Of a DNA stretch of 64,000 nucleotides, positions 1 through 54,751 are shown one piece after another (positions within the stretch are counted from its first letter, which is position 1; every line of letters starts with the position of its first letter). Source of the DNA: a virus. The DNA lies in IMG/VR virus record IMGVR_UViG_3300045988_067909. One strand, given 5' to 3'. The notes beneath the pieces are model-generated. The model was not told the DNA's origin. It did no database searches and was given only the letters and a program-made list of their open reading frames with translations. A program made the position numbers and the translations under genes.

Positions 1-31
1 AATAATTACCGTATCTAAGAGACAGAGAAAA

Positions 32-58
32 CCCTATATAGGCAATGCCTATATAGGG
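32..58 (+). terminator. Intrinsic terminator hairpin (CCCTATATAGG-caatg-CCTATATAGGG) followed by a T-rich tract; member of the TATAGGCAATGCCTATA hairpin family
   Basis: Perfect 11-bp stem, 5-nt loop, T-rich run at 62-75. Confidence 0.6.
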
Positions 59-607
59 AACTTTCTCTATTTTCTTAAGGATAATGATGGCTAGTGTTTG
101 ATATAATAATATTATTCTTTTTAAGCGGAGTTTACCCATCTATGAAGAACACTGTTAAAATCTACATAGATAGAATTTATACAAAATGTATGTACGTTTG
201 TTAACTATTAACCATATTCTAATTGAACCAGAATTAGCTGTAAGTTATTTGTAGCACTTAGCCATCATTAATGATTTGTTTGTCTAGTTTTTAAAAATAA
301 ATATTAAGACTGTATAGATCATTGATCTATACAGCTATAGGTGTACAGGTGGTGGATTTAACGTATTCGTAGTAGTGTGTTCTATTTTGTGTCTTTATTA
401 TATAAGAGAGAGATTTTATATTTAAAGTTATTTATTTTGGAGCGAAGTTTTCAAGCAAGTAGTATAATGCAATATACCACAGTCGTGAGAGATTTTAACC
501 ACCTGTACACCGATAGTTGTATATAATAGAGAATGCAGAATCTTAAGCCAACACAAACCTCTCTATTATAAAAGTGTTTATATATGCATAAAAATAAAAA
601 CAATATA

Positions 608-634
608 ACCCTAACTAGTATTACTAGTTAGGGT
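608..634 (-). terminator. Minus-strand intrinsic terminator (ACCCTAACTAGTA-t-TACTAGTTAGGGT) ending the leftward operon
   Basis: Perfect 13-bp stem; an A-run on the plus strand at 590-606 gives a T-run downstream on the minus strand; lies just downstream of the minus gene ending at 710. Confidence 0.55.
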
Positions 635-709
635 ATACTGTATGTGGATATTCTGTAAAGAAAGGATTTAAGAAGTGACATCTGCAAATACCACTTCATT
701 ATATTGTTC

Positions 710-1093
710 TTAGCATATTGATATAATATATTTATCATTCATAGTATAGATCTTATGAATGGTATTAATATTTTCGATAAGATAGTTGAACTCTTCTTCA
801 GTAAATCCCATATCTAATAACTCAGTTTTATTATTATGGTAGCATTTTGCAATATAACTTAAGATGTGCTCATCGGAAATATTATTTAGTTTAGGTATAG
901 AATAGGCATGGCAATAAGTAGACCCTTTGATGTCTTTCTTATCTACGCCTAGTCTATTAAATAATTTATCAATTCTTTCTTGAGACCAGAATTTAGATCG
1001 GTATAGCTTACCCATCAATTCTGATATAGAGAAGATATATGAGTTATCATATACCGTTCCGTTTTTGTATAAAACTGTATTATCAGAAGCCAC
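710..1093 (-). CDS. Hypothetical protein (127 aa)
   Basis: ORF in a tight array with the 123-aa ORF; no recognisable motif. Confidence 0.55.
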   Translation of the reverse strand: MASDNTVLYKNGTVYDNSYIFSISELMGKLYRSKFWSQERIDKLFNRLGVDKKDIKGSTYCHAYSIPKLNNISDEHILSYIAKCYHNNKTELLDMGFTEEEFNYLIENINTIHKIYTMNDKYIISIC

Positions 1094-1096
1094 TGA

Positions 1097-1468
1097 TTAG
1101 TCCTCCAAAATCTCCTTAGGATCATAGTAATCTGACCCTGTATTATCAGAAGTTTCGGATTCCTCAATAGTTACATTAAGATCAACTCCACGAGACTCCA
1201 TAATCTCTTTGATCTTTTTATTATCCCCAAATCCATTCTCTAATAGAGCATGGACTAGTTCTGTTGGTCCTTCTGGAGTGGAGAATACTACACCCTTGTT
1301 AGGAGTAAAGTCTCCATCAGTATTGACCATCCATTTACGGACCTCAAGTTTTGCAGGTCTATTATTCCATGATACTTCAGCTAAACGAATAAGAGTATTA
1401 CCTCGTTCTTCTACAATAACATCAATACCACCTTCAACAACTTCGAATGTGAGTTGTTTCTTTTCCAT
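1097..1468 (-). CDS. Hypothetical protein (123 aa)
   Basis: ORF with the SD GGAGACT upstream of the ATG on the minus strand (plus 1469-1490 region). Confidence 0.6.
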   Translation of the reverse strand: MEKKQLTFEVVEGGIDVIVEERGNTLIRLAEVSWNNRPAKLEVRKWMVNTDGDFTPNKGVVFSTPEGPTELVHALLENGFGDNKKIKEIMESRGVDLNVTIEESETSDNTGSDYYDPKEILED

Positions 1469-1674
1469 AGTTATAGTCTCCTCAAAGAAAAAATAAACCC
1501 TGCATTATTATATGAAATATGCGTTTTAGGTTGTCATTAATGGTTGCACACGGAAATGTGTATATCCTAAATTAATGCAGGGTTATTTTTTATATACAAC
1601 TATGGTAGGTTGATGATGAACGAAACAAGTGAACACATAGTTTACCTACCATAGTGTATTACATAATTAGATTA

Positions 1675-2511
1675 TTAGCGACGTGGTTTTACGAAGCGGT
1701 CGTTGCCAACAACTGTACCAACGTAACGGTTTTGAAGTTCGTTGATTTTGGATTGTTTAATACGACGTACTTCTAATACGTAGCCTACATCGTTACGACG
1801 GGATTGTGCACCCAATGTAACTTTGTATTGGTATTTGTCGCCATATACCAAAGACATAGCTTTTTCCAATGTCATACCACGAACGATCAAACTGATCTTA
1901 TTTGAATACTGATCGTATTCGTACGCAATATTAATTGTACGGAAGTCTTTGTTATGTTTGTCATCACGGTTATAATCAGAGATAGCAATCTTTTTCAAGA
2001 TAGTAATAGCCATGTCTGTCATACGGAAACCAGCGAAATCTTCGTCAATGTATCCATTAGATGTACGGCTATTACGCATGCTATTAGTCATAGCCATGAT
2101 GCGTTGAGTTTGCTCATCCAATTGATTATTGGCTTGAGCTTCTTTTAAAGTTTCTAATGCTCGGATACCGTCTTGACCAGCACCTAAGTTAATATCGAAA
2201 CCTAATTCGATATAGATACGGCCATTGCTGTATGCTTCACGGCAACCAGCAAAATCAGGAAAAATGCGACCAAGGATATCAGATACTTGGGAACAGATTT
2301 CATTAGTAGAAACTAATTTACCAGCATAGTCTGCATCGAAGTCAGCGAAATCCAATTGGATATCGACATCTTCATTCTGTACAGAATTGTCTTCGCTGTT
2401 TTTAGGATTACCTGCATTGATTGCATCCACTAAATATTCCATGGATGTAAACTGAGGTTGCATTAAATTTGGGTCTTGAACAAACCCTGGTTTGAAATAA
2501 CTCATAGTCAT
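1675..2511 (-). CDS. Hypothetical abundant protein (278 aa); codon usage typical of highly expressed (virion) genes
   Basis: Codon choice is rich in CGT/TTC/AAC/TCC, unlike its neighbours; strong SD (AGGAGGAAATG on the minus strand). Confidence 0.65.
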   Translation of the reverse strand: MTMSYFKPGFVQDPNLMQPQFTSMEYLVDAINAGNPKNSEDNSVQNEDVDIQLDFADFDADYAGKLVSTNEICSQVSDILGRIFPDFAGCREAYSNGRIYIELGFDINLGAGQDGIRALETLKEAQANNQLDEQTQRIMAMTNSMRNSRTSNGYIDEDFAGFRMTDMAITILKKIAISDYNRDDKHNKDFRTINIAYEYDQYSNKISLIVRGMTLEKAMSLVYGDKYQYKVTLGAQSRRNDVGYVLEVRRIKQSKINELQNRYVGTVVGNDRFVKPRR

Positions 2512-2626
2512 TTCCTCCTTGTTAATAAATATATAGAAAATTACCTAGGTGTTTGGGGCACTGTAATTGTCTACACAATACCCATGTACACACCTTTATA
2601 TTATATAACCATAAAACTCTTTGGCT

Positions 2627-3508
2627 TTATAGATATATTCCTTGGATTTCATTCTTGTCTATATACTTGACTATATAGAGTCTATCGTTCTTATCTTCTA
2701 CTAGCATATACTTACCTTTGATATTATACAGATTGACGTCATGATAATACTCAGTAACTATACAGTCTAAGAAGATAGCTCTAGCTACAGATTCAAGAAC
2801 GAAGATATCACCACGTGTTAACTGACCATGTGTAAGATATCTATCTTTAAACGATAGTTCAATTCGTTTAATTTTAAAGTTAGCTCTAAAGTAAGATTGG
2901 AAATTGATTCCTTCGAAGAATTTAGTTAGTCCTTCGATAGGTGTATCGCTATATGTAATACCAAAGCTTCTATCAACTAAGAGATCAAATATCTTCTCAG
3001 TAATAACTGTATTAGTTGCAATAAGTGGAATGATAGTACTATGGTTATCATTTACATATAAGTCTATAGTCATCTTAGAATGAAGCTCTTTAACATCACT
3101 CATTAGATTCATATAAGACATCTCATACTCTTCTACAGAGTTATTCTCTAATAAGGCTTTAGTACAACACTTACCAGGTTGTAAAGCCCCAGTTACAGAA
3201 TCTCTATAACCAACTCTACAGATATAGAATGGGTAACCATAAGATTCTCTTTCATTGTATATAGAAATAACTACGTCTTCTTGACCATTCTTCAATACAG
3301 CTATTTCTACATGTAACTTACAATGTGGATTAAGAGCCTTATACTCTTTATTAACTACATCTCTAGCTATACTCTTTCTACCAGTATTACCAATAATCTC
3401 AGTAACACCGTAAAAGTTTTTAGTATTAGTTGACGTTACTCTATAAAGTTCTTTAATATTTTCATTATCATCATATTTAAGAAACTTTTGTCCTAATGTC
3501 AGTATCAT
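2627..3508 (-). CDS. Hypothetical protein (293 aa)
   Basis: Long ORF with the SD GGGAGGT upstream. Confidence 0.6.
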   Translation of the reverse strand: MILTLGQKFLKYDDNENIKELYRVTSTNTKNFYGVTEIIGNTGRKSIARDVVNKEYKALNPHCKLHVEIAVLKNGQEDVVISIYNERESYGYPFYICRVGYRDSVTGALQPGKCCTKALLENNSVEEYEMSYMNLMSDVKELHSKMTIDLYVNDNHSTIIPLIATNTVITEKIFDLLVDRSFGITYSDTPIEGLTKFFEGINFQSYFRANFKIKRIELSFKDRYLTHGQLTRGDIFVLESVARAIFLDCIVTEYYHDVNLYNIKGKYMLVEDKNDRLYIVKYIDKNEIQGIYL

Positions 3509-3576
3509 AGTAAATTACCTCCCAAGCACAATATATGGTGGTACATATATAGTTATGTACCACCAATTATTATTTT

Positions 3577-5670
3577 TTATCTTAAGAATAGTACCGCTTT
3601 AAGATAGTCCAATGTATATTTCAACGTAGACCCTTTGATGCGAATGACTTTATCATTAAATTTAGTTGTGCTATAGTACTTAGTAAAGTTAAAGTTAGTT
3701 TCTTTATTAAGTATATACACCATACACTTAGTATAGTCATTCAAGATTCTAGCTCTTGTATCAATTAGCTTCTTATCTTTATGACCTTTGTTTAGCATAG
3801 ACTCAATACATATATTCATATACCATAGTTTAGCTGATTCGAATTTAACACCATCCATATTACCAGCTGTCATATAGATTACCAATAAACGATGTGTCTT
3901 AAAGAACTCATCATCAAAGTTAATCTTTTCTGGCTTAGTAATTAATAGATCACCATAGTTATTAAACTCTATAGGGATATCTTTAGCTTCATTAATAGCA
4001 GATTCACGTAAGATTCTATCAATCACTTTCTGTTTAGCTACAGATTGTAAACGTTTCTTATAAGCTATACTATCTGACGGTAAGAACTTGGTTGTTGGTA
4101 CACCTAAAGCTAATAGCTTCTCTGTAGCACTAGTAAGTTCTTCTTCACTTTCAGAAGTTCTCCATTGCTTAATGGTTTTATTAACCATAGTAAACCATTT
4201 ATTGAACGCTAAACGTTTACTACGATTAGAACTGATATCGATACCTTGCCAGATATCTTTATATGCATCTAGCCAAGCAAGCATATCTACACAATCAGTA
4301 TCAGTACTATGCTTCCTAGTGTATTCTTTTAGCTTACTTTCAATCTCTTCTGGTGTAAAGAATGGTACACCTGCTGGTAATACTGGATCTTGTATTTGAT
4401 TACCCCAAACATCTGTAGCTTCTATTAGAGTGATATCTTGATACTTAAGTTCCATTGTATTTAGAAGATGAGACTTCATAAAGTTATAGAACGTTTCATT
4501 AGTACAACCAACTAACTCTAATAGTTTCCAGTCAGACATTTGTTGTAATTGAATAGGCATACCCTTATATAAAGACCATAGTTCTTCTAAAGATACTATA
4601 GACTTACATAGGTTCATAATATAGATACCTGTATTTAAAGACCATTCTTTAGCAGAATGAAGTTCTCTACCCTTATTAGCAAGATTGATACCAAACATAT
4701 TTGCTCTATTAAGAATAGCACTATTCTTTAATTGTACTTCTTCATCACTGATGTCAGCTTCAGCATCTTCTTTGATAGATATATTGTCATATTTAATAGG
4801 CTGATTCAAGAACTGTTTCTTTAATTCTTCATATCTATCTGAATTGGTTTTACCAAATAGACGAATAGATACATCATCAGAGAAGCGTTGTTGGTCATTA
4901 GTTAAACCATAGAAAATATCCATCTGTGCATCTAATTCTTTCTCAGATTCTGGTGTAGCCAATACAAATGAATTAGGGTCACAGTTTAAGAATGCTTCTT
5001 TAGTATAGTTATCACAGTTGCTACATGGTGTATCAGATAATACATTATCAGTTAACAATACATCATTCAAATCAATAGCTGAATCAGTACGATTCATAGT
5101 CTTTACATTAATAGCAAAGTATCCATCATTATCTGTCATTACATCGATATCAGGATGATCTCTAACTATCTCTTTGGCTTTATTCTTTTCTAATTCACCT
5201 ATTAATGGCATATAGTCATCAGGTAACTTAGAGAAGTCTATCTCAGCCATTTCTGCTTCTTGCTCTAGAGTAGCAATAACAGAAGACATTTCAACCAATG
5301 CTTTATCTGGTTCAAATGTAATCTCTTCAAAGTCTTTATTGTATTTGATTTGGTCATGAGAGATTAGTTCCATACCAGTCAATTGTTCATAGAAGTTATT
5401 AGCTTCTAGTTTACGTTTATCTTCACCTTTGAAACGGTATAAGTTAAACTTACGGTCTTTTAAGAAATCTGATTTCTTATATTCTTTTGTACCATCAGAA
5501 GACTTTACTTTAATAGTATCATCTTCTAAGTCTTTGGTTAAACCATAACCCTCTACTGATTCATCACCAGTAAAAGAGTTACTGTAACCATATTGTACTA
5601 CGATTTGATCACTAGCATTAGCTGGTGGAACTCCACCAACGTTAGCAGTGAACTCTTTTAGATTAGACAT
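3577..5670 (-). CDS. Hypothetical protein (697 aa)
   Basis: Long ORF; its start overlaps the upstream stop (TAATG), so likely translationally coupled. Confidence 0.7.
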   Translation of the reverse strand: MSNLKEFTANVGGVPPANASDQIVVQYGYSNSFTGDESVEGYGLTKDLEDDTIKVKSSDGTKEYKKSDFLKDRKFNLYRFKGEDKRKLEANNFYEQLTGMELISHDQIKYNKDFEEITFEPDKALVEMSSVIATLEQEAEMAEIDFSKLPDDYMPLIGELEKNKAKEIVRDHPDIDVMTDNDGYFAINVKTMNRTDSAIDLNDVLLTDNVLSDTPCSNCDNYTKEAFLNCDPNSFVLATPESEKELDAQMDIFYGLTNDQQRFSDDVSIRLFGKTNSDRYEELKKQFLNQPIKYDNISIKEDAEADISDEEVQLKNSAILNRANMFGINLANKGRELHSAKEWSLNTGIYIMNLCKSIVSLEELWSLYKGMPIQLQQMSDWKLLELVGCTNETFYNFMKSHLLNTMELKYQDITLIEATDVWGNQIQDPVLPAGVPFFTPEEIESKLKEYTRKHSTDTDCVDMLAWLDAYKDIWQGIDISSNRSKRLAFNKWFTMVNKTIKQWRTSESEEELTSATEKLLALGVPTTKFLPSDSIAYKKRLQSVAKQKVIDRILRESAINEAKDIPIEFNNYGDLLITKPEKINFDDEFFKTHRLLVIYMTAGNMDGVKFESAKLWYMNICIESMLNKGHKDKKLIDTRARILNDYTKCMVYILNKETNFNFTKYYSTTKFNDKVIRIKGSTLKYTLDYLKAVLFLR

Positions 5671-6485
5671 TAATCTTCTCCTTTAAGTTCCTTGATGGCA
5701 TTCTCACACCATGAAGTGAATTCATTAATATTGAAAGTCTTAGTATTATCATTATCCTCTAACTTGAAACGTAGTTCCATGAATATAGCTAATAGCTGTG
5801 CAAAGTTATTATCAGTAAGACGAATATAGTTATACTTGTCTAGAGTGATAATATTAAACTCTTTGGCTTTTTGTTTAGCTCTATACTCAGGCATGCTTCT
5901 TGTGTTAGGATGATCACCTCCATCTTTGACTTCGATTATGAGGTTATATGGTATATAATATATATCCGTAATCCAATTTCGTGTAACACCATTTTGGTCT
6001 ACATATTGGATAGTTGGACCAGGCATCATAATATCATCACTAGGGATATGTAGAACTTTATCCATGAACTCAATAGCACGTTTCTCATATGTACCAGTAT
6101 AAGTAAACATAGTACCATCAGAATATTTGTAAGTACCAGATATACGTCTATTGGCTAACATCTTTTCTTGGTGCTCTGGATCATGCATGAATGTATATCT
6201 CCCATATACTTTATGCATATTCTCTAAAGCACGTTTACGCATTTCTTTCTTACACTTCTCACTACAATACTTATTATATCTCCAAGTCTTTTCATTCCAT
6301 TGTGTTTCATTCTTACAGATAACACAAGTTCCTTTAGACTTTTTATTAATTGTATTGAATACAATTCTAGCTGCAGAGTAACCCTCAGGGATTAGTTCTT
6401 GGTGTTTATTTTGTATATGTCTTACCAATGGTTCACGTTCTAGACGTTTCTCACAGAAAGGACATTTGAATCTTTTCGTTGCCAT
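5670..6485 (-). CDS. Zinc-finger protein with a possible PD-(D/E)xK-like nuclease core (271 aa)
   Basis: N-terminal FKCPFCEKRL...HIQNKH (C2H2-like) and CVICKNE...CSEKCKK Cys pairs; C-terminal D...IIEVKD motif. Confidence 0.6.
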   Translation of the reverse strand: MATKRFKCPFCEKRLEREPLVRHIQNKHQELIPEGYSAARIVFNTINKKSKGTCVICKNETQWNEKTWRYNKYCSEKCKKEMRKRALENMHKVYGRYTFMHDPEHQEKMLANRRISGTYKYSDGTMFTYTGTYEKRAIEFMDKVLHIPSDDIMMPGPTIQYVDQNGVTRNWITDIYYIPYNLIIEVKDGGDHPNTRSMPEYRAKQKAKEFNIITLDKYNYIRLTDNNFAQLLAIFMELRFKLEDNDNTKTFNINEFTSWCENAIKELKGED

Positions 6486-10487: not shown

Positions 10488-10516
10488 TCCCATAGTCCAC
10501 ATATAGGACTATGGGA
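10488..10516 (+). terminator. Hairpin TCCCATAGTCC-acatat-AGGACTATGGGA
   Basis: 11-12 bp perfect stem after the 107-aa gene; the first ATG of the next ORF lies inside it. Confidence 0.45.
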
Positions 10517-10552
10517 TTTCTACATATTAATAACTACGGAGGTTATAAAAAT

Positions 10553-12232
10553 ATGGCAGATAAACTTAGAGGAGATCATTTAGAGGTCTCTTTATTAGAT
10601 ATGGATGACTTCGTAAAGAAGAATAATCTACAACCTATAACGAATCCTATATTTTTTGATGTGAATGGTAATCCAACTGATGATGGATTACTATCTAATA
10701 TCATCTTTGGTATTACTAAGCAAACACGTGCTGGTACTTTTGCTTATATTGATTTACATGGTAGATTCTTAGCACCATTGGTATACAAGATCTGGGGTAA
10801 GATTGATCGTAAACTAAAAGAAATTGTTAAAGGTACTAAGTTCTTTAAAATAGATTCGGATGGTCAATTTGTTGAAGATGAGAATGGTGAAACTGGTTTA
10901 GACTTCTTATATAAGAATATAGACAAGGTTAAGTTTAGAGAGACTGGTTCTACTAAACGTAGTCGTTTTATTAAGTTCTTAGAACGTAACCGTAAGAACT
11001 TCTTCATTACTAAACTATTAATCATTCCACCATACTATCGTGACGTTAAAAGTGATGGTGGTAAAGTCTCAGTTGGTGATATTAATAAGCTATACCAAAA
11101 CGTATTAGTATCAGCTAAGTCTTTAGAAGAATCTAAATACTATGGTATTAATATCGGTGATGCTAATAAGGGACGTATACAAGACTTACTATTAGAAATC
11201 TATAACTGGTTTGGCTCTGGTACAGAGTCTAATCCTAATGGTGGTATTCCTGGTAAGTTTGGTGTATTACGTCGTACTAATATTAGTAAGACTACAGACT
11301 ATGCTACACGTTTAGTTATGTCTTCTCCAAATCTTAAAGTTGAAAATCTTGAAGATATCGAAGCTAACTTAGAATACTCAGTATTACCAATGACTTCAGC
11401 TGCAGCTAACTTCTTCCCATTTGTATTATTCCATATGAGAAGATTCTTTGAAGAGCAATTTGCTGGACGTACAGTATACGAATGTATTGGTTCCAAGGGT
11501 GAAGTCTTATATCCTAGAATAGATGATTGGCAAACGTATTTCAATGATCTAGTTCTTAAGAAAGAGTTAGACCGTTTCATTCATGGTTATTCTGATAGAT
11601 TTAGACCAATAGAAGCACCTATTAGTTCTAAAGAGATGGAACGTATTGGTTATAAGGGTAAAACTTTATACATGAAATTTAAAGCACGTTTTAAACGAGT
11701 TGAAGATATTGCTGAAGATAAAGATTCTGGTGTAGCAAAAGAGCTTCAACGTAAACTAACTTGGTGTGATGTAATCTTTATGGCTGCTACAGAAGCTATA
11801 AAAGATAAAATGATTCTTATATCACGTTTCCCTATAGATACATTCTATAACCAGTTCTCTACTAAATGTAAATTATCATCTACTATTGAAACTGAAAGTA
11901 TAGAATTTGATGGTAAGTTCTATAAGAACTATCCTAAGATTCGTGATGAATACATTGGCACTAATACTGCAAATAAGTTTATTGATACAATGAATATCTG
12001 TAATGCTTATTTGGAATCTATTGGTGGTGACTATGATGGTGATATGGTAACCATCAAAGGCATATTCACAGATGAAGCTAACGCTGAACTTAAAAAGCAA
12101 CTAGAGTCTAATGTCCATTTTATTGACTTAGGTTGTAAAGCAGTAATAGCTAATACTAACGAATGTATCCAAGCATTGTTCTCTTTAACTATGACATTAG
12201 ATGGGGATGTACTTACTGACCCTAAATTTTAA
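10553..12232 (+). CDS. Multisubunit RNA polymerase beta-prime subunit, N-terminal half (split gene)
   Basis: GGDYDGDMV matches the NADFDGD catalytic Mg site. PTDDGLLSNIIFG resembles E. coli PERDGLFCARIFG. AYIDLHGRFLAPLVYKIW resembles GHIELASPTAHIWF. Start moved to the internal ATG with GGAGG 10 nt upstream; the first ATG lies inside the preceding hairpin. Confidence 0.75.
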   Translation: MADKLRGDHLEVSLLDMDDFVKKNNLQPITNPIFFDVNGNPTDDGLLSNIIFGITKQTRAGTFAYIDLHGRFLAPLVYKIWGKIDRKLKEIVKGTKFFKIDSDGQFVEDENGETGLDFLYKNIDKVKFRETGSTKRSRFIKFLERNRKNFFITKLLIIPPYYRDVKSDGGKVSVGDINKLYQNVLVSAKSLEESKYYGINIGDANKGRIQDLLLEIYNWFGSGTESNPNGGIPGKFGVLRRTNISKTTDYATRLVMSSPNLKVENLEDIEANLEYSVLPMTSAAANFFPFVLFHMRRFFEEQFAGRTVYECIGSKGEVLYPRIDDWQTYFNDLVLKKELDRFIHGYSDRFRPIEAPISSKEMERIGYKGKTLYMKFKARFKRVEDIAEDKDSGVAKELQRKLTWCDVIFMAATEAIKDKMILISRFPIDTFYNQFSTKCKLSSTIETESIEFDGKFYKNYPKIRDEYIGTNTANKFIDTMNICNAYLESIGGDYDGDMVTIKGIFTDEANAELKKQLESNVHFIDLGCKAVIANTNECIQALFSLTMTLDGDVLTDPKF

Positions 12233-12242: not shown

Positions 12243-12269
12243 CCCAGTATAGTCAATGACTATACTGGG
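12243..12269. terminator. Bidirectional hairpin CCCAGTATAGTCA-a-TGACTATACTGGG between convergent genes
   Basis: 13-bp perfect stem, A-rich on the left and T-rich on the right. Confidence 0.55.
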
Positions 12270-15335: not shown

Positions 15336-15362
15336 CCACTATAGGGCACTGCCCTATAGTGG
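15336..15362 (+). terminator. Hairpin CCACTATAGGG-cactg-CCCTATAGTGG plus TATTTTG
   Basis: 11-bp perfect stem directly after the stop of the 145-aa gene. Confidence 0.6.
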
Positions 15363-19228: not shown

Positions 19229-19255
19229 TCCGATATAGGCAATGCCTATATCGGA
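19229..19255 (+). terminator. Terminator hairpin TCCGATATAGG-caatg-CCTATATCGGA plus TTTTTG (TATAGGCAATGCCTATA family)
   Basis: 11-bp perfect stem, same loop and inner stem as 32-58. Confidence 0.65.
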
Positions 19256-20915: not shown

Positions 20916-20943
20916 CCACTATGAGGAAATTCCTCATAGTGGG
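20916..20943. terminator. Bidirectional hairpin CCACTATGAGG-aaatt-CCTCATAGTGG
   Basis: 11-bp perfect stem between convergent genes, A-rich on the left and T-rich on the right. Confidence 0.55.
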
Positions 20944-21770: not shown

Positions 21771-22502
21771 ATGCGTATTTCTTATGAAGTGGCCTCTAGA
21801 TTAATGAGGAAAGCTGCTATTAAAGTTTATCTTAAGTACAACGGGATTATTAATCCATCCCACCCATACACCACATTACACGTTCTAGATACTCCATTAC
21901 GAGAAGATCCTGATGCATATGCAAATACATCAGTATTTGGCAAGATCAGTGTAAGCTTACCAACCATATTCAAATATGGTGAAGATGAAGATACTATAGA
22001 ACGGTATATAACCAGAGTCACTGAGATTACTTTACATGAGTTATCTCATTGTGAACAAGCTCTAGACATTTATCAATTACATTTCCAGAATAGACTGGTT
22101 GATAAATGTGAAGCAGAGAATGAGTATAGAACTGGTACATTTATGCTTAATAGGTTAGATGAGTTAACTAAACTATTAGGCTACCAAATAGATGTAGATT
22201 TTATAAAGACTTATTATGTAGACGAGTATTCTGATCATAAGAACTTTGTCTACAGAAATCCTACTACATACCCTATATATTTAAACTATGTAATGCTAGG
22301 TGATATGACTAATATTCCTAGAGACTGTGATCTCTATACAGGATTAAAAGAATTTGGTGATTTACCAGTAAGACGTAATGGTATATACATACCATCCCAT
22401 AAACTCTTTGAGTACTATGGTGAAGTCTATGACAATTACTGGCCTATGGGTTGGAGATTTGTAACTCCAAATAAGATAGCTTTGATAGTAAAACCTAGGT
22501 AG
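21771..22502 (+). CDS. Putative Zn-metallopeptidase (HExxH), 243 aa
   Basis: ITLHELSHCEQ contains an HExxH, SprT/ImmA-like signature. Confidence 0.4.
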   Translation: MRISYEVASRLMRKAAIKVYLKYNGIINPSHPYTTLHVLDTPLREDPDAYANTSVFGKISVSLPTIFKYGEDEDTIERYITRVTEITLHELSHCEQALDIYQLHFQNRLVDKCEAENEYRTGTFMLNRLDELTKLLGYQIDVDFIKTYYVDEYSDHKNFVYRNPTTYPIYLNYVMLGDMTNIPRDCDLYTGLKEFGDLPVRRNGIYIPSHKLFEYYGEVYDNYWPMGWRFVTPNKIALIVKPR

Positions 22503-22521
22503 AGTCATTGACTCTACCTAG
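22495..22521. terminator. Bidirectional hairpin CTAGGTAGAGTCA-t-TGACTCTACCTAG plus T-run
   Basis: 13-bp perfect stem plus TTCTTTTTTATTTTTT. Confidence 0.6.
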
Positions 22522-25892: not shown

Positions 25893-26933
25893 ATGGGATT
25901 CCTTGACGAACTAACTAATTCTATTATCCTTGAAGCAGAGGATAATAAGAAGAAAAAAGATACCCCTGCTGAAGATGATGATACAATGGAACCAGATGTT
26001 CCTGAAGATGGAGATGAAGTTCCAGAAGATGATGACACTAAAGAAGAACCACCAGCAGATGATACAGCTGATGACGACACCGATGATGACGTTGAACCTG
26101 ATGACGGGGACGATGAAGTTCCTACTGATGACGATGATACTGATACCGGTGATGATGGTACAGATGGTGGGGATACTGCAGATGATACACCAGAAGATGA
26201 TGGAGTAGAACCTGACGAAGGTGATGATATTCCAGCTGATGATGACGGTGGGGATATTGCAGATAGAGCTGCTGATGGTGGAGATGATACTGGTGATGAT
26301 ATTGAACCTGATACTACCGAAGACGGTGAAGATGTACCATCCGAAGATGGAGATGATGCTCCAGACGCTGGTACTGACGACACTGGTGATGACACAGGTG
26401 ATGGTGATGATATCGAACCAGATACTGGTGAAGATGGAGATGAAATTCCATCTGAAGATGGTGACGATGTACCTGATGCTGGAGGAGATGACGGTGGAGA
26501 CACTGATGACTCTGGAGATGGTACAGGTGATACTGGTACTGATGATGGTAGTACTGGTGGAGACCCTAAACTAGATACTGATATCAAAGCCATTGAAGAT
26601 AACCTTTTCAACAATCTAAAACCAGAACAGAAAAATATAGCAATAAAAGAACTTAAGACTAGATGGATGGATTTGTATGATCAAATCAATCGATTTATTA
26701 CTAAGATCGATTATATTGCTAAGACCCCAGACAATATCAATATAGTACTACGTGTGACTAAACTTACGCAACAATTACGTGATACAGTTGAACACTATAT
26801 CATTAATACGTTTAGCACTAAGTCCTATATTGAGAATAAGTCTGAGCTATTTTACTCGCTGCTTATATTAGATAGACTTGTCAAACTACTTGCCACTACA
26901 GTTAAAGAAGACGATACAGAAAAAACTGAGTGA
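25893..26933 (+). CDS. Polyacidic repeat protein (Asp/Gly/Thr/Pro/Glu-rich ~200-aa disordered region plus helical C-terminal domain), 346 aa
   Basis: Imperfect tandem protein repeats IEPDTxEDGxxxPSEDGDDxPDAG; the underlying DNA repeats span ~25960-26560. No terminator before the next gene. Confidence 0.7.
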   Translation: MGFLDELTNSIILEAEDNKKKKDTPAEDDDTMEPDVPEDGDEVPEDDDTKEEPPADDTADDDTDDDVEPDDGDDEVPTDDDDTDTGDDGTDGGDTADDTPEDDGVEPDEGDDIPADDDGGDIADRAADGGDDTGDDIEPDTTEDGEDVPSEDGDDAPDAGTDDTGDDTGDGDDIEPDTGEDGDEIPSEDGDDVPDAGGDDGGDTDDSGDGTGDTGTDDGSTGGDPKLDTDIKAIEDNLFNNLKPEQKNIAIKELKTRWMDLYDQINRFITKIDYIAKTPDNINIVLRVTKLTQQLRDTVEHYIINTFSTKSYIENKSELFYSLLILDRLVKLLATTVKEDDTEKTE

Positions 26934-27030
26934 CCAGTCTGCCCTGTTTAGCTAATATAACAATATATTAAAATGCGCTAATTTGAGCATTAATGTTTAA
27001 ATTAAACTATCCTGAAAGGAGACTACAAAT

Positions 27031-29121
27031 ATGCCAGTTGTAGGTAATCAATCTAGCGATGTTGTATCCAGCCGTTCTTTCCATAAAGGTGCTGAATACG
27101 AATTCGCTAATGCCATTGTAGAAATGGCGGAAAATATCGCAAGCGAAACACAAACAGACTTCTTTACTGAGTCTGCTCGTTTAATGCGTAATAAGGACGC
27201 TGCTCGTGCCCTTAAAAACTTCTTCGTAAATGAATCTGCTGATGCAGACGAATTTGCTGACAATCCAGCAGGTCTTCGTGACCACGAAATGATGATGGAA
27301 CAACTTTTCGAAAATGACCGTCAAGGTATCTTGGAATATGCTTCCATCGGTTCTTACAACCCTGTAATGGGTCTTGTGTTACCTTTACACAAAAATATGA
27401 TGATGAATAACGTTTTCGATAAAGGCGTTATTCCTAAAGCTGTAGCTAAAACTCCTAAGTTCACTTTGAGCATGGAAGTGCGCAAAATGATCGGTGTTGA
27501 TGGTACTGAAATCGATATGTTCACAGAACAAAATCGTATTTTCGAATTGATGGAATCTTCTGCTCCTACACGTCGTGTATTCGTAGAAGTTAACCCAACT
27601 AAACCTATCATCCCTGGTGGTGCTGACGAAAAAGCTATGCGTGAATCCTTGAACTTGGCTCTTTATGGTGCTAAAGATGGTTTCAACAAAGCTTATGATG
27701 CATACTCCATTACTACAGCTATCACTGGTATCGTAATCGACGGTACTAACGCTCATGATGGCGATGCTATCGTAGTTGACTCCAAAGCTGTAAATGCTGC
27801 TGGTGAAACTTACAAAACTGTAGGCGTTAAAACTGCAACTAATACTGGTGACTTGGTTATTGCTATTAGCCCTCGTCGTTTCGAACCTGGCTATGGTGAA
27901 TTAGATCGTCAAATCACTACTAAATTCAACTTTGTAAAACCTGGTACTACAGACGTAGTTGAAGGTTACATCACTGGTTACACTAAAAACAATCAATTCA
28001 TGATTTCCTGTGTTGGTTCTGCTGACATCAAAGGTGTAATCATCGATTCCAAACGTGACACTTCCAACGCTATGATCGATACTCCATCCGTACGTTGGGA
28101 TGCTGTAACTCAAATCGTAGAAATCCCTAATGCTAACCCTATCAACGTTCCTATTTCTCCTGAAGAAGTAAAAGACGTTCAAGCATTATACAACGTTGAC
28201 CAATTGTCCAAAACTCTTGGCTTGATCAAAGATGTATTGGGTAACTACAAAGATGACAAAATCCGTAAAGAATTGGACTTGTCTTTCAAAACTATGCCTG
28301 CAGCTAACAAACTTGCAGCTACATTCGACTTCTGCCCACCAGACACTTATAACATGGATCCAGTAAACTGGAGACGTACAATGTTCATGGACCAATTAGA
28401 TATGTATGTAACTACATTGCTCCAAGTATTGAACGATCCTAACGTAACTGTTTCCGTTATCGGTGCTCCTGCATTGATTCGTCGTATTACTCCAGTAGAA
28501 TACACTTACCAATCCCCATCCAGCATTGGTCCTGTAGAATTGGATTACAAACGTACAGTTGTAACTTCCGACAAACGTGTTTACAACTTCGTTTCTTCCG
28601 ATAAACTTCGTAACGATTCCAACTTGATCATCGTATTGAACCCTCGTAACACTGACCGTGTTATCTACACTATTTACGATTATCAATTGTACTTATCCAA
28701 CGAAATCCGTAACAAACAAAACTACGCTCTCCCAGCTGTACATGCGTTTGAACGTTTCCACTTCTTCTCCTATCAACCAGTACAAGGTCGTCTTCGTATC
28801 TTGAACGCTTCCGGTCTTCGTGATACAGTTCAAAATACTAAACCTGTAACTAAAGATTACAACGAACGTTACGACATGAACGATCATGGTTTCTATGATT
28901 CCATCCGTCATGACGGCACTAAAGTTGTATCCCCAACTGGTTACCCTTATCCTGTAAAATATGACTTAGCTTCCAACCCTCATTCCTACTCTGTAGAAGC
29001 TGAATTGACTCCAGCAGCTCAAGCAGCTAAAGCAGAATTGGATGCTATGCGTGCAGCAGGTGTAACTTCTAAAGTTGAACCATTCGAATTGGATCGTGTA
29101 GTTCGTGAAACTGAAAAATAA
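27031..29121 (+). CDS. Abundant virion protein, candidate major capsid protein (696 aa)
   Basis: Strongest highly-expressed codon bias in the window (CGT, TTC, TCC, AAC, GGT); strong SD GAAAGGAG; size typical of jumbo-phage MCPs; follows a scaffold-like acidic protein. Confidence 0.6.
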   Translation: MPVVGNQSSDVVSSRSFHKGAEYEFANAIVEMAENIASETQTDFFTESARLMRNKDAARALKNFFVNESADADEFADNPAGLRDHEMMMEQLFENDRQGILEYASIGSYNPVMGLVLPLHKNMMMNNVFDKGVIPKAVAKTPKFTLSMEVRKMIGVDGTEIDMFTEQNRIFELMESSAPTRRVFVEVNPTKPIIPGGADEKAMRESLNLALYGAKDGFNKAYDAYSITTAITGIVIDGTNAHDGDAIVVDSKAVNAAGETYKTVGVKTATNTGDLVIAISPRRFEPGYGELDRQITTKFNFVKPGTTDVVEGYITGYTKNNQFMISCVGSADIKGVIIDSKRDTSNAMIDTPSVRWDAVTQIVEIPNANPINVPISPEEVKDVQALYNVDQLSKTLGLIKDVLGNYKDDKIRKELDLSFKTMPAANKLAATFDFCPPDTYNMDPVNWRRTMFMDQLDMYVTTLLQVLNDPNVTVSVIGAPALIRRITPVEYTYQSPSSIGPVELDYKRTVVTSDKRVYNFVSSDKLRNDSNLIIVLNPRNTDRVIYTIYDYQLYLSNEIRNKQNYALPAVHAFERFHFFSYQPVQGRLRILNASGLRDTVQNTKPVTKDYNERYDMNDHGFYDSIRHDGTKVVSPTGYPYPVKYDLASNPHSYSVEAELTPAAQAAKAELDAMRAAGVTSKVEPFELDRVVRETEK

Positions 29122-29189
29122 TTGCCACATTCAGTAATACTATGCTGATGGTGAATTAGTATAGCATTCGTGGTTTATTTGTAAAAGAG

Positions 29190-29220
29190 CAGGCCTATAG
29201 ACTGAGAGTCTATAGGCTCA
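29190..29220 (+). terminator. Hairpin GCCTATAGACT-gag-AGTCTATAGGC plus CTCTTTGTTTTC
   Basis: 11-bp perfect stem after the putative MCP gene. Confidence 0.6.
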
Positions 29221-29246
29221 CTCTTTGTTTTCACAAGGGGATAAGA

Positions 29247-30407
29247 ATGGATAAAGCAAAAACAAATTATGATTTTAATGATCTCTTAACTATAATTGAT
29301 TCGTTAAAACAAGATGCTGATCCTGATGTCCTTCGAAACTTTGCATATGAATTAAACATGTTCTTCAGAGATGTCAAATGTGAGGGTGTCTTATACACTA
29401 ATAACACAGACTTAGACTTCTTTGGTGTATACGTACAACCAGTCTTAAAAGAAAAGGATGTATATCCTTTACTTATATCTGATTATACTACTACTATTGA
29501 GAAGTACTATGTAGAACTGGACTCTAAACTATTTAATCCATTGCTAGGTTTGACTAATAGAGAGATCCTCGCTATTATTCTACATGATATAGGTTCAATG
29601 ATTAACTCATCTGGTCCAATAGACCGTGCTGTAAAAGAGATTGATTTATATCTTGACACTACAAATGATGTACTACGTACTACAGACAATGTAAACTATG
29701 TAGCTATTCTTACATTTGGATTGAAAGATTTATTACATAAATTAACCTCAATCTTCACGGCGGACTTGACTAGCAACGTTGCTATTGATGACTTTATTAT
29801 GTCTTGTGGGTTCATTAACGAACTTAATAGTGCTATTAGTAAACTCAAAAAGTTTGGCTACTTAAACATGTTCTCCGAAGGTGGTTCTCCTTCTGCGATT
29901 ATTGCATGGACAATCCGGATCTACAATGATATCAAAGGTCAACGTATCCGTACTATACGTTTACTACGTAAAGCTGCTTCTTACACTCCAGTACGTTTAG
30001 TTAAACGTGAAATGAATCATATGATTACTGCGTTATCTAGAATTGATGATTCTTCTATCTTAGAATCTGTATTTGACGACGTTAAAATGAAATACCAAAG
30101 TATGACCAAGAAATTCACAATGTCTTCTATTAAAGACATTGAGGAAGACTATTATGATTATGCTGTCACTCTTCAAAACGTTAATGACGAGGACGATGCT
30201 CTATTACTCTTGCATAGAATTAATAGTCGTATGAGCGTTATCGATGGTATTCTTAATGACGATAATCCTCAAATCTCTGACAGAGAACGTAAAGCATTCG
30301 CTGATTTATATGAACGATATAACAAATTGCGTAATGACGTTGTAGCTAAGAAAGTATATAAACGTAACTATCGACGTATTTATGTAAACTACGGCGAAGA
30401 TGACTAA
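29247..30407 (+). CDS. Hypothetical protein (386 aa)
   Basis: ORF; SD AAGGGGA. Confidence 0.6.
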   Translation: MDKAKTNYDFNDLLTIIDSLKQDADPDVLRNFAYELNMFFRDVKCEGVLYTNNTDLDFFGVYVQPVLKEKDVYPLLISDYTTTIEKYYVELDSKLFNPLLGLTNREILAIILHDIGSMINSSGPIDRAVKEIDLYLDTTNDVLRTTDNVNYVAILTFGLKDLLHKLTSIFTADLTSNVAIDDFIMSCGFINELNSAISKLKKFGYLNMFSEGGSPSAIIAWTIRIYNDIKGQRIRTIRLLRKAASYTPVRLVKREMNHMITALSRIDDSSILESVFDDVKMKYQSMTKKFTMSSIKDIEEDYYDYAVTLQNVNDEDDALLLLHRINSRMSVIDGILNDDNPQISDRERKAFADLYERYNKLRNDVVAKKVYKRNYRRIYVNYGEDD

Positions 30408-30421: not shown

Positions 30422-30448
30422 CTACCATAGAGCAATGCTCTATGGTAG
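30422..30448 (+). terminator. Hairpin CTACCATAGAGCA-a-TGCTCTATGGTAG plus T-run
   Basis: 13-bp perfect stem plus CCTATTTTTATC. Confidence 0.55.
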
Positions 30449-41468: not shown

Positions 41469-41723
41469 ATGAATGATTTAGACCGATTCTTCCTAGAGGA
41501 TCTAGAAGGTGAACTATTTCTAGACGTTCTAAGTGAAGATACTACATTGGATCTATTAATTGACGATACTCATCGTGGTGATGTTGATGTAGATCCTGCA
41601 AGTGATGACTACACAGCTAATTACTTAGATGATGTAGATGATAACAATCTTGATCGTGTTATTGATGGTGAAGAAATCGATGATGACGACGATTACGATG
41701 ATGATTATGATGATTTTTATTAA
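41469..41723 (+). CDS. Small polyacidic protein (84 aa, Asp-rich)
   Basis: SD ATGGAGGT; about 40 percent D/E; C-terminal DDDDDYDDDYDDFY. Confidence 0.6.
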   Translation: MNDLDRFFLEDLEGELFLDVLSEDTTLDLLIDDTHRGDVDVDPASDDYTANYLDDVDDNNLDRVIDGEEIDDDDDYDDDYDDFY

Positions 41724-41741
41724 AAAAGGAGCTTTGTAACA

Positions 41742-42095
41742 ATGGCTGATGTAATTAGACAAGACTTAGACCGTGATGCTACTGCTGTAATTGATATTGT
41801 TAAATCTGGTAGTGCAGATGATCATGTAGTTGATAATGTTATTGACACCGTAACTGATGCTATCTCTGATGTAGAATTAGATGATACTCATAACGATGGT
41901 GATGACATTGATGCAGTTGAAGGTTTAGAACCTCAAGAGATAGATATCTATGCTGATGATGAAAATGATGCAGCTGAAATCGAATTAATGAATGATGCTG
42001 GTACAGAAGATGATAGTGATACTGATGATGAAGGTGTTACTGAAGAAATCGTTGATGCTGTACAAGAAGCTATGTCTGAACTAGAAGACTTTTAA
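41742..42095 (+). CDS. Small polyacidic protein (117 aa, Asp/Glu-rich)
   Basis: SD AAAGGAG; D/E-rich throughout. Confidence 0.6.
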   Translation: MADVIRQDLDRDATAVIDIVKSGSADDHVVDNVIDTVTDAISDVELDDTHNDGDDIDAVEGLEPQEIDIYADDENDAAEIELMNDAGTEDDSDTDDEGVTEEIVDAVQEAMSELEDF

Positions 42096-42121
42096 TTTTT
42101 TACAAAAAATAAAACAATTAT

Positions 42122-42148
42122 GTAGAAGAGGCTGCGAACCTCTTCTAC
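42122..42148. terminator. Bidirectional hairpin GTAGAAGAGG-ctgcgaa-CCTCTTCTAC
   Basis: 10-bp perfect stem, A-run upstream and T-rich downstream, between convergent genes. Confidence 0.55.
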
Positions 42149-42168
42149 ACATTGTTTTGTTTAGAGTA

Positions 42169-42345
42169 TTATGGTTCTAATCCTTCGATAAAGGATAAGC
42201 AGTCCATATACTCATTATGAGAATAGTTTTTTGAATTACCATTCTCATAATTGTGTACCACAGATAAAGCTAATCTTACTTTTAGTGCAAAATTAGCTTT
42301 ATAACCTGCGTTGAGATTAAAATATCTCATTTGTGCCCCTGTCAT
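42169..42345 (-). CDS. Microprotein A (58 aa) under the duplicated leader
   Basis: True start is at the internal ATG 5 nt after AAAGGAGGTGAT; the ORF-track N-terminal extension MFSTVKGGDP is the translated SD region from a GTG. Confidence 0.55.
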   Translation of the reverse strand: MTGAQMRYFNLNAGYKANFALKVRLALSVVHNYENGNSKNYSHNEYMDCLSFIEGLEP

Positions 42346-42470
42346 AGGATCACCTCCTTTGACGGTGGAGAACACACCGTGTATGGTTATATTTAGATAC
42401 AGCTATTTGCGGTAGCTGTATCTACCATACACATTTATAGTATATAACTATAACTCAGTTTACTTTATAA
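42341..42470 (-). promoter_or_regulatory. Duplicated leader copy A: SD, a conserved 11-bp-arm inverted repeat (42395-42423) and promoter-like AT-rich upstream sequence
   Basis: About 125 bp is near-identical to 42703-42830; the IR AGATACAGCTA-n7-TAGCTGTATCT is conserved while the loop differs. Confidence 0.6.
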
Positions 42471-42524
42471 AAAATAATGGTTCATGGGTAGATGAGTGAA
42501 CACCTACCCATGAAGGTAGTCAAA

Positions 42525-42707
42525 CTACCTTACACCATATTTGTCCATCAGCCTAGCTGATGCACCTCCTCTAACAGGTAGAGGAGATGGGTGTTGTAAA
42601 ACACCAAACTTATCAACGTATGGAATCGATTCAGACTCGATTCTCATACGATCAATGTCTGGGACTAGTTTACACCAGTCCAACATTTTCTCTCTTTCTG
42701 ACGTCAT
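42525..42707 (-). CDS. Microprotein B (60 aa) under the duplicated leader
   Basis: Same SD and leader as microprotein A; unrelated protein sequence. Confidence 0.55.
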   Translation of the reverse strand: MTSEREKMLDWCKLVPDIDRMRIESESIPYVDKFGVLQHPSPLPVRGGASARLMDKYGVR

Positions 42708-42830
42708 AGGATCACCTCCTTTGACGGTGGAGAACACACCGTGTATGGGTAAATTTAGATACAGCTAATTCCGATAGCTGTATCTACCATGCACATTTAT
42801 AGTATGCAATTGTAAAACAGTTTACTTTAA
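42703..42830 (-). promoter_or_regulatory. Duplicated leader copy B with conserved inverted repeat (42757-42785)
   Basis: Near-identical to copy A across SD, IR arms and upstream AT-rich sequence. Confidence 0.6.
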
Positions 42831-42841
42831 CGAAAAGAAAT

Positions 42842-42868
42842 CCCTGTATAGGCATTGCCTATACAGGG
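42842..42868. terminator. Terminator hairpin CCCTGTATAGG-cattg-CCTATACAGGG plus TATTTTTG (TATAGGCAATGCCTATA family; loop variant TTG)
   Basis: 11-bp perfect stem; related core to 32-58, 19229-19255 and 54727-54751. Confidence 0.6.
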
Positions 42869-42882
42869 TATTTTTGTGTTTC

Positions 42883-43851
42883 TTATCGATAGTCGTATTG
42901 TTTTTGGATATCATTAGGAATATAGAATCCTAATGCTTCAGATAATACCATCATAGTTAGTGTAGCTTCACAAGCTGCTGTGATTTTATCCATATCTAAT
43001 GTACCAGATTCAGTAATCATACCATAACCTAGATTAGCTAAAGCTTTCTTAGATAGGTCACGAACCATAGCTTCATATAAACCTACTTTACGAGTATCCA
43101 AACGTTTCTTAATTTGCAATCTACCACGTTGAATAGTAGATTCTTTAATCTCTTCTTCCTCTTCAGCATTAGCTGCTTGGATAGTTGCAACTTTATCTTC
43201 TACGTTTTGTAATACATCTTTGATGTGTTCTTTATCTTCGATATTAGCAATGATGAACTGTTCAATACCATTAGCTACATGAGTTTTTACAGAATCACCA
43301 ATGTCTTGGATTTCTTCTTTGTTTTCATCGGAGTTTACTTTATCAACGAATGTTTCAGTATCATCTGGAGAAACTTTAGGTTCTTCATCTAAGTCATTGG
43401 ATTTTAAAGCTTCTTCATTATCTTCCATGATAGCTTTATGAGTTTCTGTTACATACTTAGCAATTTGTGCAGTGAATGCATTTGTTTTGCTTAATGTAGA
43501 TAGGATTTTATCAGAACCGGTTTGCTCAATGAAATTGGAGATAACTTTGTTTCTAATTACACGGTTATCTTCAGACATCATTGGATAACTAGCAGATGCT
43601 TCGAATAAGATATTCAAAGCTTCAAAGATAAGACCATTACGTACAGAATTAGAGAAGTCTTGACGACGTTTAGTCATTTTACTACGATTAGCAATTTGAT
43701 CATATAGATTACTTGCTACTGCAGATTCATGTACAGGTTGGTATTCTAATTCTTTTAAACCTTTTACAATTTCTTCACGTCTAGCGGATTGTACTGCTTC
43801 AAAAAATAAAGAACCAGATGTAATTCCTCTAGGTTTATTTTTAATATTCAT
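42883..43851 (-). CDS. Hypothetical protein (322 aa)
   Basis: ORF; SD GGAGGTTAATG on the minus strand. Confidence 0.6.
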   Translation of the reverse strand: MNIKNKPRGITSGSLFFEAVQSARREEIVKGLKELEYQPVHESAVASNLYDQIANRSKMTKRRQDFSNSVRNGLIFEALNILFEASASYPMMSEDNRVIRNKVISNFIEQTGSDKILSTLSKTNAFTAQIAKYVTETHKAIMEDNEEALKSNDLDEEPKVSPDDTETFVDKVNSDENKEEIQDIGDSVKTHVANGIEQFIIANIEDKEHIKDVLQNVEDKVATIQAANAEEEEEIKESTIQRGRLQIKKRLDTRKVGLYEAMVRDLSKKALANLGYGMITESGTLDMDKITAACEATLTMMVLSEALGFYIPNDIQKQYDYR

Positions 43852-43865
43852 TAATCATTAACCTC

Positions 43866-44864: not shown

Positions 44865-44875
44865 GTGTCCTCCTC

Positions 44876-54714: not shown

Positions 54715-54726
54715 ATAAAAGAAACT

Positions 54727-54751
54727 CCCATATAGGCAATGCCTATATGGG
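54727..54751. terminator. Bidirectional terminator hairpin CCCATATAGG-caatg-CCTATATGGG plus ATTCTTTTT (TATAGGCAATGCCTATA family)
   Basis: 10-bp perfect stem between convergent genes. Confidence 0.65.

Follow-up and report, generated by a model that had tools for sequence, protein, structure and literature searches.

What is the role of a gene-free island of about 600 bp, crossed by long inverted repeats, in the genome of a jumbo phage? This question is raised by the beginning of the IMG/VR record IMGVR_UViG_3300045988_067909, of which a stretch of 64,000 nucleotides, called the window below, was analysed. The record belongs to a human-associated jumbo phage of ~268 kb, and the window has a GC content of 32%. 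An origin of replication, a packaging or partition site, a cluster of operators and a structured RNA had all been proposed for the island on inspection of its letters. The analysis presented here indicates that positions 20-578 probably harbour two tandem, independently transcribed minus-strand genes for structured noncoding RNAs (ncRNAs), named RNA1 and RNA2. The structured RNA of the original prediction is therefore retained, as two molecules instead of one and on the minus strand, while the origin, the packaging or partition site and the operator cluster are not.

A gene-free island with two long-range inverted repeats

The island is bordered on its right by a minus-strand gene for a 127-amino-acid (aa) protein (710-1093), which ends at 710 and lies upstream of RNA1. 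On its left, a plus-strand gene for a 123-aa protein has its 3' end at 18. The upstream part of this gene was read from relatives, which supply the sequence 5' of the window, and the island can therefore be placed between converging genes. Since both flanking genes converge and have their own terminator hairpins (32-58 and 608-634), RNA1 and RNA2 can be regarded as independent units. No open reading frame (ORF) with a ribosome-binding site was found in the island and none is kept in frame or length across the five lineages described below, in agreement with the earlier statement that the region lacks a credible ORF. A leaderless mini-ORF at the start of RNA2 (AUGAUGG...) was rejected as coding because its length runs from 5 to ~19 codons between lineages. 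The window contains neither transfer RNA (tRNA) nor transfer-messenger RNA genes.

The repeats first noticed in the island are present, with small corrections of position. The perfect palindrome of 25 bp, CTGTATAGATCA-t-TGATCTATACAG, lies at 310-334 and not at 311-335. The left arm of the long inverted repeat, CTATAGGTGTACAGGTGGT, is found at 335-353 (not 337-355) and its right arm, ACCACCTGTACACCGATAG, at 498-516 (not 499-517), with one mismatch and 144 nt between the arms. The TATAAT box at 463-468 and the hairpins at 32-58 and 608-634 are located exactly as described. A repeat search extends the inverted repeat to 26 nt (328-353/498-523, 92%), and a second long-range repeat, which is perfect and had been overlooked, pairs 82-93 with 259-270. 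Chance was evaluated with 200 dinucleotide-preserving shuffles of positions 100-700. The best inverted repeat with at most two mismatches had a mean length of 14.5 nt and a maximum of 18 nt in the shuffles, against 26 nt in the island (0/200 as long), and a perfect stem of at least 12 appeared in only one of the 200.

Conservation of the architecture in five lineages

The locus was collected by a combination of exact-pattern and protein-guided searches from about 16 IMG/VR contigs, European Nucleotide Archive (ENA) and Logan assemblies, and Joint Genome Institute metagenomes, and 31 related loci were examined in all. These relatives come mostly from human-microbiome samples and have genomes of ~257-269 kb labelled 'Caudoviricetes sp.'. 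They can be divided into five lineages. Lineage A groups the window and the loci L017-L024, which are 92-98% identical to it. RNA1 is 87% identical in lineage E (L125) and 73% identical in lineage D (L047). In lineages B (L025-L029) and C (L030-L033), the interior of the locus is not alignable to the window: with blastn, positions 496-1100 and 4-60 align (~78-91% identity) and positions 61-495 do not.

Conservation and covariation in relatives had been suggested as a check of the original prediction. The structure is indeed conserved, even though positions 61-495 cannot be aligned to lineages B and C, and its helices are kept by changes on both sides. All five lineages show the same order of elements: a helix pairing the ends of a segment of 180-230 nt, a perfect hairpin, a long helix and a 5' hairpin. 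Across lineages the long helix measures 15-20 bp, encloses 120-225 nt and directly adjoins the perfect hairpin, while the interiors lose or gain whole hairpin modules from one lineage to another.

The element read from 567 to 293 on the minus strand, RNA1, is a G-poor (12% G) structured RNA of ~275 nt, longer in lineages B and C (~340-355 nt). It opens at its putative transcription start with a 5' hairpin (525-567, AAUAGAGA.../...UCUCUAUU), the part of the locus with the best sequence conservation. The loop of this hairpin carries a conserved GUGUUGGC motif, together with CCUGC in most lineages and UCUGC in the window. Its outer stem is invariant and therefore provides no evidence of covariation. 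The long-range helix follows, with the right arm of the inverted repeat (498-516) as its 5' arm and the left arm (335-353) as its 3' arm. The helix adjoins the 3' hairpin T1, formed by the perfect palindrome (310-334) and followed by a U-rich tail (293-308). An alternative pairing at 328-334, where the long helix and the palindrome overlap by 6 bp in riboswitch-like fashion, was seen by eye in lineages A and D, not in B and C, and was discarded. The second element, RNA2 (20-269, minus strand), measures ~250 nt including its terminator and keeps its architecture in the five lineages as well. Its 5' and 3' ends pair: the 5' arm of the closing helix (253-269) begins at the putative transcription start and forms 17 pairs with the 3' arm (83-99).

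Compensatory changes and the probable transcribed strand

When the full RNA1 was treated with MAFFT and RNAalifold, the long helix was missed as its arms were misaligned; the arms were then re-aligned in pairing register. In the helix 498-516/335-353 (20 pairs), 87% of the alignment cells are paired and nine pairs have changed on both sides, against 27-51% of paired cells and 0-3 such pairs when the partner arm is slid. Its mismatch is found at the same place in seven of eight sequences, six times as a pyrimidine-pyrimidine opposition and once as A·C. The closing helix of RNA2 (253-269/83-99, 17 pairs) reaches 93% of paired cells, with four pairs changed on both sides; the slid partner gives 21-48% and 0-3 pairs. 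The stem of T1 covaries in turn: one pair is G-C in eight sequences and A-U in seven, a second one is A-U in eight and U-A in seven, and the closing pair is G·U in eight sequences (lineages A and D) and G-C in seven (lineages B and C). The stem at 608-634 also covaries between lineages.

The variation in the RNA2 helix is informative with respect to the strand. Five further pairs vary on one side only, and always to G·U. The inner 14 pairs of this helix, taken as minus-strand sequence, comprise 151 Watson-Crick cells, eight G·U and no A·C; on the plus strand, these eight G·U cells would be mismatches. Folding energies point in the same direction. The fold z-score of positions 60-607 is -6.9 on the minus strand versus -3.1 on the plus strand; for RNA1 the values range from -5.7 to -6.8 versus -3.2 to -4.5, and for RNA2 they are -9.0 versus -5.7. 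Tests made RNA by RNA favour the minus strand in five of six cases. As to the transcript starting near 470 that had been predicted on the plus strand from the TATAAT box, this box turns out to be half of a minus-strand hairpin stem. In L017, a relative 92% identical to the window, the TATAAT is altered and the stem retained.

Putative promoters and terminators

The late promoter of the non-virion RNA polymerase of phage AR9 has the consensus AACA-N6-T-A/G, in which the final base is +1 (PMC5312081, PMC7598289, PMC9209446). Two matches of this type are found on the minus strand of the island. In promoter P1 (578-567), AACA occupies 578-575 and the N6 spacer 574-569, followed by T (568) and the +1 A (567); in promoter P2 (280-269), AACA occupies 280-277 and the spacer 276-271, followed by T (270) and the +1 A (269). 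Both are present in 31 of the 31 loci. AACA and TA are invariant, and the N6 spacer is variable (CTTTTA, ATTCTA, ATTCTG, AATCTG or CTTTTG in P1; AATCAT, AATCAG, ATTCAA, ATTCAG or ATTCAT in P2). The 5' hairpin of RNA1 begins with the +1 A of P1, and the closing helix of RNA2 with that of P2. Over the window, AACA-N6-T[AG] has a density of 2.33 per kb per strand in intergenic DNA versus 0.33 in coding DNA, a 7-fold difference, and of the 22 intergenic matches, 15 face a gene at a downstream distance of 18-304 nt, which does not exceed 82 nt in 14 cases. This distribution of the motif suggests that the phage shares the template-strand promoter recognition of AR9, and perhaps its uracil-containing DNA. 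The window also encodes, at 10511-12232, a subunit of a split multisubunit RNA polymerase, whose nearest relatives (~29-32% identity) belong to AR9/PBS1-like jumbo phages infecting Staphylococcus, Listeria and Bacillus.

Other candidate promoters were set aside. A third match to AACA-N6-TA, at 381-370, is lost in lineage D (L047) and in the close variant L017. The plus-strand candidates TGATATAAT (98-108) and TATAAT (463-468) are missing from other lineages, and no good match to an AR9-like early promoter motif was found within the island. Elsewhere in the window, AACA-N6-TA, often followed by AT (TAAT), stands 18-82 nt 5' of many genes; intergenic examples are located at 14794, 26959, 30485, 40158 and 46758 on the plus strand and at 2553, 6519, 14743, 23423 and 46132 on the minus strand.

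The 3' sides of these units are occupied by hairpins. The minus-strand terminator hairpin of the 127-aa gene (608-634), a perfect 13-bp stem with a U-run at 586-607, constitutes the upstream boundary of the RNA locus. The hairpin T2 (32-58), a bidirectional terminator, would serve RNA2 on one strand (minus) and the converging 123-aa gene on the other (plus). Both hairpins have the form of intrinsic terminators (a GC-containing stem, then a U-tract), and T1 was called as a terminator by a scan of the minus strand. In L024, a poly-T/poly-C stretch that looks like an assembly artefact replaces the 32-58 terminator.

The palindrome at 310-334 is not particular to the island. It belongs to a genome-wide family of terminator hairpins: the window contains at least 11 perfect palindromes of 25-27 bp, with 13-bp arms around one central base, at 32-58, 310-334, 608-634, 12243-12269, 15336-15362, 19229-19255, 20916-20942, 22495-22521, 30422-30448, 42842-42868 and 54726-54752. 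Many share the core TATAGG-CAWTG-CCTATA, and they occupy the 3' ends of genes and the spaces between converging ones, with A-run and T-run flanks. To judge from these features, they look like the standard, often bidirectional, terminator hairpins of the phage. The resemblance between their stem sequences is unusual for terminators, and hints at a sequence-specific factor or at a spread through duplication. The two GATC sites reported in the palindrome are absent from lineages B, C and D; they are incidental, since these lineages carry GCUGUAUGG... at this place.

From the whole set of signals, we infer that P1 and P2 fire and that the hairpins terminate transcription. The non-virion RNA polymerase of the phage would start RNA1 at 567 and RNA2 at 269 from AR9-type late promoters, and the first nucleotides of both RNAs would enter a helix immediately, being paired from +1 or +2. 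RNA1 would fold its 5' hairpin, then an 18-20-bp long-range helix closing a fast-evolving multi-hairpin body, and would terminate in the palindromic hairpin at 310-334 with its U-rich tail. RNA2 would pair 253-269 with 83-99 around another multi-hairpin body and terminate at the bidirectional terminator at 32-58.

Alternative explanations

Several observations weigh against two separate minus-strand RNAs. In lineages A, B and C, 8-14 nt separate the T1 stem from the main U-run (4 nt in lineage D), which makes T1 an atypical intrinsic terminator; a partial read-through, and therefore an RNA1-RNA2 co-transcript, is possible. More generally, promoter use and the 3' ends of the RNAs are deduced from the motifs just described. 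One of the six fold tests, on the RNA2 of L028, favours the plus strand, and the RNA1 helix by itself does not reveal the strand. The locus L048 of lineage B (ENA ERZ28634280 scaffold_1456, 3533-3844) is without most of the 3' arm of the RNA1 helix, owing to a ~30-nt deletion that is either real or an assembly error. The five lineages are closely related, so that the covariation represents few independent events, and the shuffle statistics of the helices overstate their significance for the same reason of relatedness; sounder evidence comes from the controls with a slid partner and from the count of distinct changes on both sides. Finally, the function proposed in the next section derives only from short conserved motifs predicted to be unpaired.

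The displaced U-run is also an argument for a single minus-strand ncRNA or 3' untranslated region of ~550 nt, made from 567 or by read-through of the 127-aa gene, in which the hairpin at 310-334 would be structural. This variant, which alters the number of RNAs and not their nature, is improbable. The short distance between the units (~25-40 nt) and the position of RNA1, just 3' of the 127-aa gene and in its orientation, fit it as well, the U-run being displaced from T1 in three lineages. It does not account for the AACA-N6-TA at 280-269, which is invariant in 31 of 31 loci amid variable surroundings and whose +1 coincides with the 5'-most nucleotide of the helix closing RNA2; moreover, the 127-aa gene has a strong terminator of its own. 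The two-RNA organisation must also be compared with an origin of replication, where the promoters would make primer or R-loop transcripts, as at T4 ori(uvsY)/ori(34) or with ColE1 RNA II, and where the dyads would act as DNA or single-stranded DNA (ssDNA) structures. An AT-rich, gene-free island with two promoters between converging genes would suit this role, the AR9 non-virion RNA polymerase is able to initiate on ssDNA, and a gene for a weakly PC4/YdbC-like (ssDNA-binding) protein is located ~0.5-0.9 kb away, at 1097-1468. An origin is nonetheless quite unlikely here. The island has no iterons or repeated boxes, its sole direct repeat being 11 nt long and in two copies. The predicted transcripts are bounded by a hairpin and a U-run, which would free the RNA instead of holding an R-loop, and the selection on long-range pairing, with variation to G·U only on one strand, is what an RNA would show. 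In addition, the gene strand does not switch at the locus and no extreme of the cumulative skew is seen where the window begins, although the position of the locus at the window edge limits the skew test.

The perfect 25-bp palindrome and the nested dyad symmetry could also evoke sites for dimeric proteins at the DNA level (clustered operators, or a site for partition or packaging), the more so as palindromes with the core TATAGG-CAWTG-CCTATA are shared genome-wide. Such sites are argued against since the helix arms change while the pairing persists: arm sequences vary freely between lineages provided that they still pair, whereas a binding site would retain its sequence. The arms are, besides, 144-225 bp apart, the GATC sites are not conserved, and the palindromes lie at gene 3' ends with the A-run and T-run flanks of terminators, which altogether renders this explanation very unlikely. 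Even less credible is the remnant of a miniature inverted-repeat mobile element, with the 26-bp repeat as its terminal inverted repeats around ~144 bp of noncoding DNA. The arms covary, the element occupies the same site in every close relative with no presence/absence polymorphism seen, and it has no other copy in the 64 kb. The corresponding nhmmer search of the window found no second copy of either RNA body and retrieved the shared terminator palindromes only. A riboswitch or attenuator leader was rejected as well, for no gene lies downstream on the same strand and the next gene converges.

Possible functions of RNA1 and RNA2

If the locus encodes two minus-strand RNAs, what could they do? 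Their base-paired 5' ends and strong 3' hairpins resemble those of exonuclease-protected RNAs and give them the profile of stable RNAs; both would be end-protected, trans-acting and made late in infection. A possible clue to their action is provided by short conserved CU-rich motifs, mostly predicted to be unpaired. In RNA1 these are UAAAAUCUCU (1-2 copies) and CGCUCC or CUCCC, the CGCUCC of the window being located at 439-444 on the minus strand. The motif UAAAAUCUCUC, an 11-nt direct repeat (copy 1 at 487-497 and copy 2 at 408-418, minus strand), is predicted to be unpaired and is present in all lineages; the unpaired probability of its AAUCUCU core is 0.68-0.96 versus a mean of ~0.5. RNA2 displays a conserved CUCCGC motif (125-130, minus strand), predicted to be unpaired and found in all five lineages, with CUCCAC instead in the lineage-C variant L033. 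Four representatives give it an unpaired probability of 0.71-0.92, and lineage D one of 0.45.

In their single-stranded state, UAAAAUCUCU, CGCUCC and CUCCGC might pair with Shine-Dalgarno-like sequences of the GGAG type or be bound by a protein. On this basis, trans-acting RNAs presenting CU-rich motifs to G-rich or protein partners are a tentative proposal, and a structural or ribonucleoprotein role may be equally open. Somewhat more doubtful is the idea of a new pair of RNAs acting as ribonucleoprotein components or decoys. As decoys they would be anti-Shine-Dalgarno-like or protein-titrating sponges that reprogramme host or early-phage expression late in infection; alternatively, they would be structural RNAs of the virion or of the packaging machinery. 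Such a function, if true, has no described precedent in the jumbo phages with multisubunit RNA polymerases (AR9-like), and sponges, decoys or ribonucleoprotein components would constitute a new means of phage takeover. Otherwise, RNA1 and RNA2 would still be two RNA families new to databases. A search for intermolecular duplexes between RNA1 and RNA2 was uninformative.

Comparison with known systems

The absence of both RNAs from existing collections was evaluated with the 4227 models of Rfam 15. No match was obtained at E<=1 in positions 1-3000, and none at gathering score in the whole window; the same models gave only chance hairpin matches, far below threshold, in lineages B, C and D. To our knowledge, very few structured ncRNAs are known from jumbo phages, and none was found described for the AR9/PBS1-like group, whose members perform their own transcription through two multisubunit polymerases. 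The late transcription units of AR9 nevertheless offer the closest parallel to the promoters of the locus, as the consensus AACA-N6-T-A/G(+1) is identical and stands before many genes in both phages, in addition to the likeness of the split polymerases (~29-32% identity to AR9/PBS1-like enzymes). They differ in that the promoters described here would drive ncRNAs, whereas the AR9 transcriptome paper describes no noncoding units. The AR9 late-promoter consensus is thereby extended to a distant uncultured relative. This phage is common in human metagenomes. Its conserved RNA pair, under putative late promoters, with protected ends and with a structure constrained in spite of fast sequence evolution, offers a concrete place to test what RNA may do in phages of this kind.

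The pRNA of phage phi29 (RF00044), an early transcript of small podoviruses, is a phage RNA of ~120-174 nt whose paired ends close a multi-branch fold and which is part of a protein machine. The locus resembles it in specifying phage RNA with paired 5' and 3' ends around a multi-branch fold. In contrast with pRNA, it has two different RNAs, neither of which matches its covariance model, and no interlocking-loop complementarity was identified in them. The small RNAs of Firmicutes of the RsaE/RoxS and RNAIII type are stable and expose unpaired C/U-rich motifs that pair with G-rich Shine-Dalgarno regions. The conserved CUCC-containing motifs of the locus, mostly predicted to be unpaired, are reminiscent of this type, but RNA1 and RNA2 have no Rfam match, are 2-3 times longer and are closed by long-range helices. 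A last comparison can be made with the GOLLD, ROOL, 6S and Y-like RNAs, a group with either an unknown or a protein-sponging function. They are likewise encoded by phages or hosts and highly structured, with paired ends in 6S and Y RNA. The two RNAs differ from them in size and branch pattern, without any Rfam match even at E<=5, and have no tRNA, Ro or RtcB context, the window being devoid of tRNA.

Distribution of the locus

The locus appears to have a narrow distribution. No DNA match to positions 1-1500 of the window was found in deposited phage genomes with near and distant search modes. Pattern scans of IMG/VR for the 5' ends of the RNAs returned the same ~16 contigs and chance matches only; L043 and L044, obtained in this way, are chance matches located in coding DNA and were rejected. 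A single new lineage (L125) and further close variants came from the metagenome scan, which yielded no distant relatives. Homologues of the flanking 127-aa protein form only five clusters, with at least 72% identity, among 5.8 billion proteins. For one variant of a flanking protein, more than 700 contigs are on record.

More distant relatives, reached through a 697-aa neighbour (36% identity), have a gap of 40 nt at the corresponding junction. It would thus seem that the RNAs are restricted to this phage group, unless those relatives carry them at another place. Two such junctions of ~40 nt, in relatives at ~36% identity, are located at 15259-15303 in L096 and at 15730-15771 in L098. In both, the block homologous to window 710-5670 adjoins genes for proteins of 326, 333 and 399 aa. 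The products of window 42883-46075 measure 322, 332 and 399 aa and match these neighbours, by length alone. If the length-matched genes are homologues, a rearrangement of the genome has taken place and that junction lacks the RNA locus.

Neighbouring features of the window

The minus-strand gene at 1097-1468, two genes upstream of RNA1, encodes a 123-aa protein with an acidic C-terminal tail. Residues 4-69 of this protein weakly match (E 0.01-0.2) bacterial PC4-like ssDNA-binding proteins, namely SP_0782 (2l3a), YdbC (2ltd), 4g06 and 3pm7. Pfam and PHROG scans of the neighbouring proteins were uninformative. The following spacer of 206 nt (1469-1674), with a minus-strand gene on either side, contains two long imperfect hairpins, AAACCCTGCATTA...TAATGCAGGGTT and CTATGGTAGG...CCTACCATAG, which may represent a terminator and a structured leader. 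Further along the minus strand, a gene at 5670-6485 resembles those of HNH/homing endonucleases (phrog_15137).

A second long gap in the gene map, at 42096-42882, holds two small minus-strand genes for proteins of ~58 and ~60 aa (MTGAQMRYF... and MTSEREKML...). Both are preceded by a duplicated leader of ~90 nt with a 12-bp hairpin (42394-42424 and 42756-42786) and carry a full-length Shine-Dalgarno sequence, AAGGAGGTGATCC. Just before this gap, the products of two adjoining plus-strand genes (41469-42095), 84 and 117 aa long, are D/E-rich and extremely acidic. Finally, the local GC content rises to 38-40% at 26000-30000, compared with 32% elsewhere, around a 696-aa gene located at 27031-29121.

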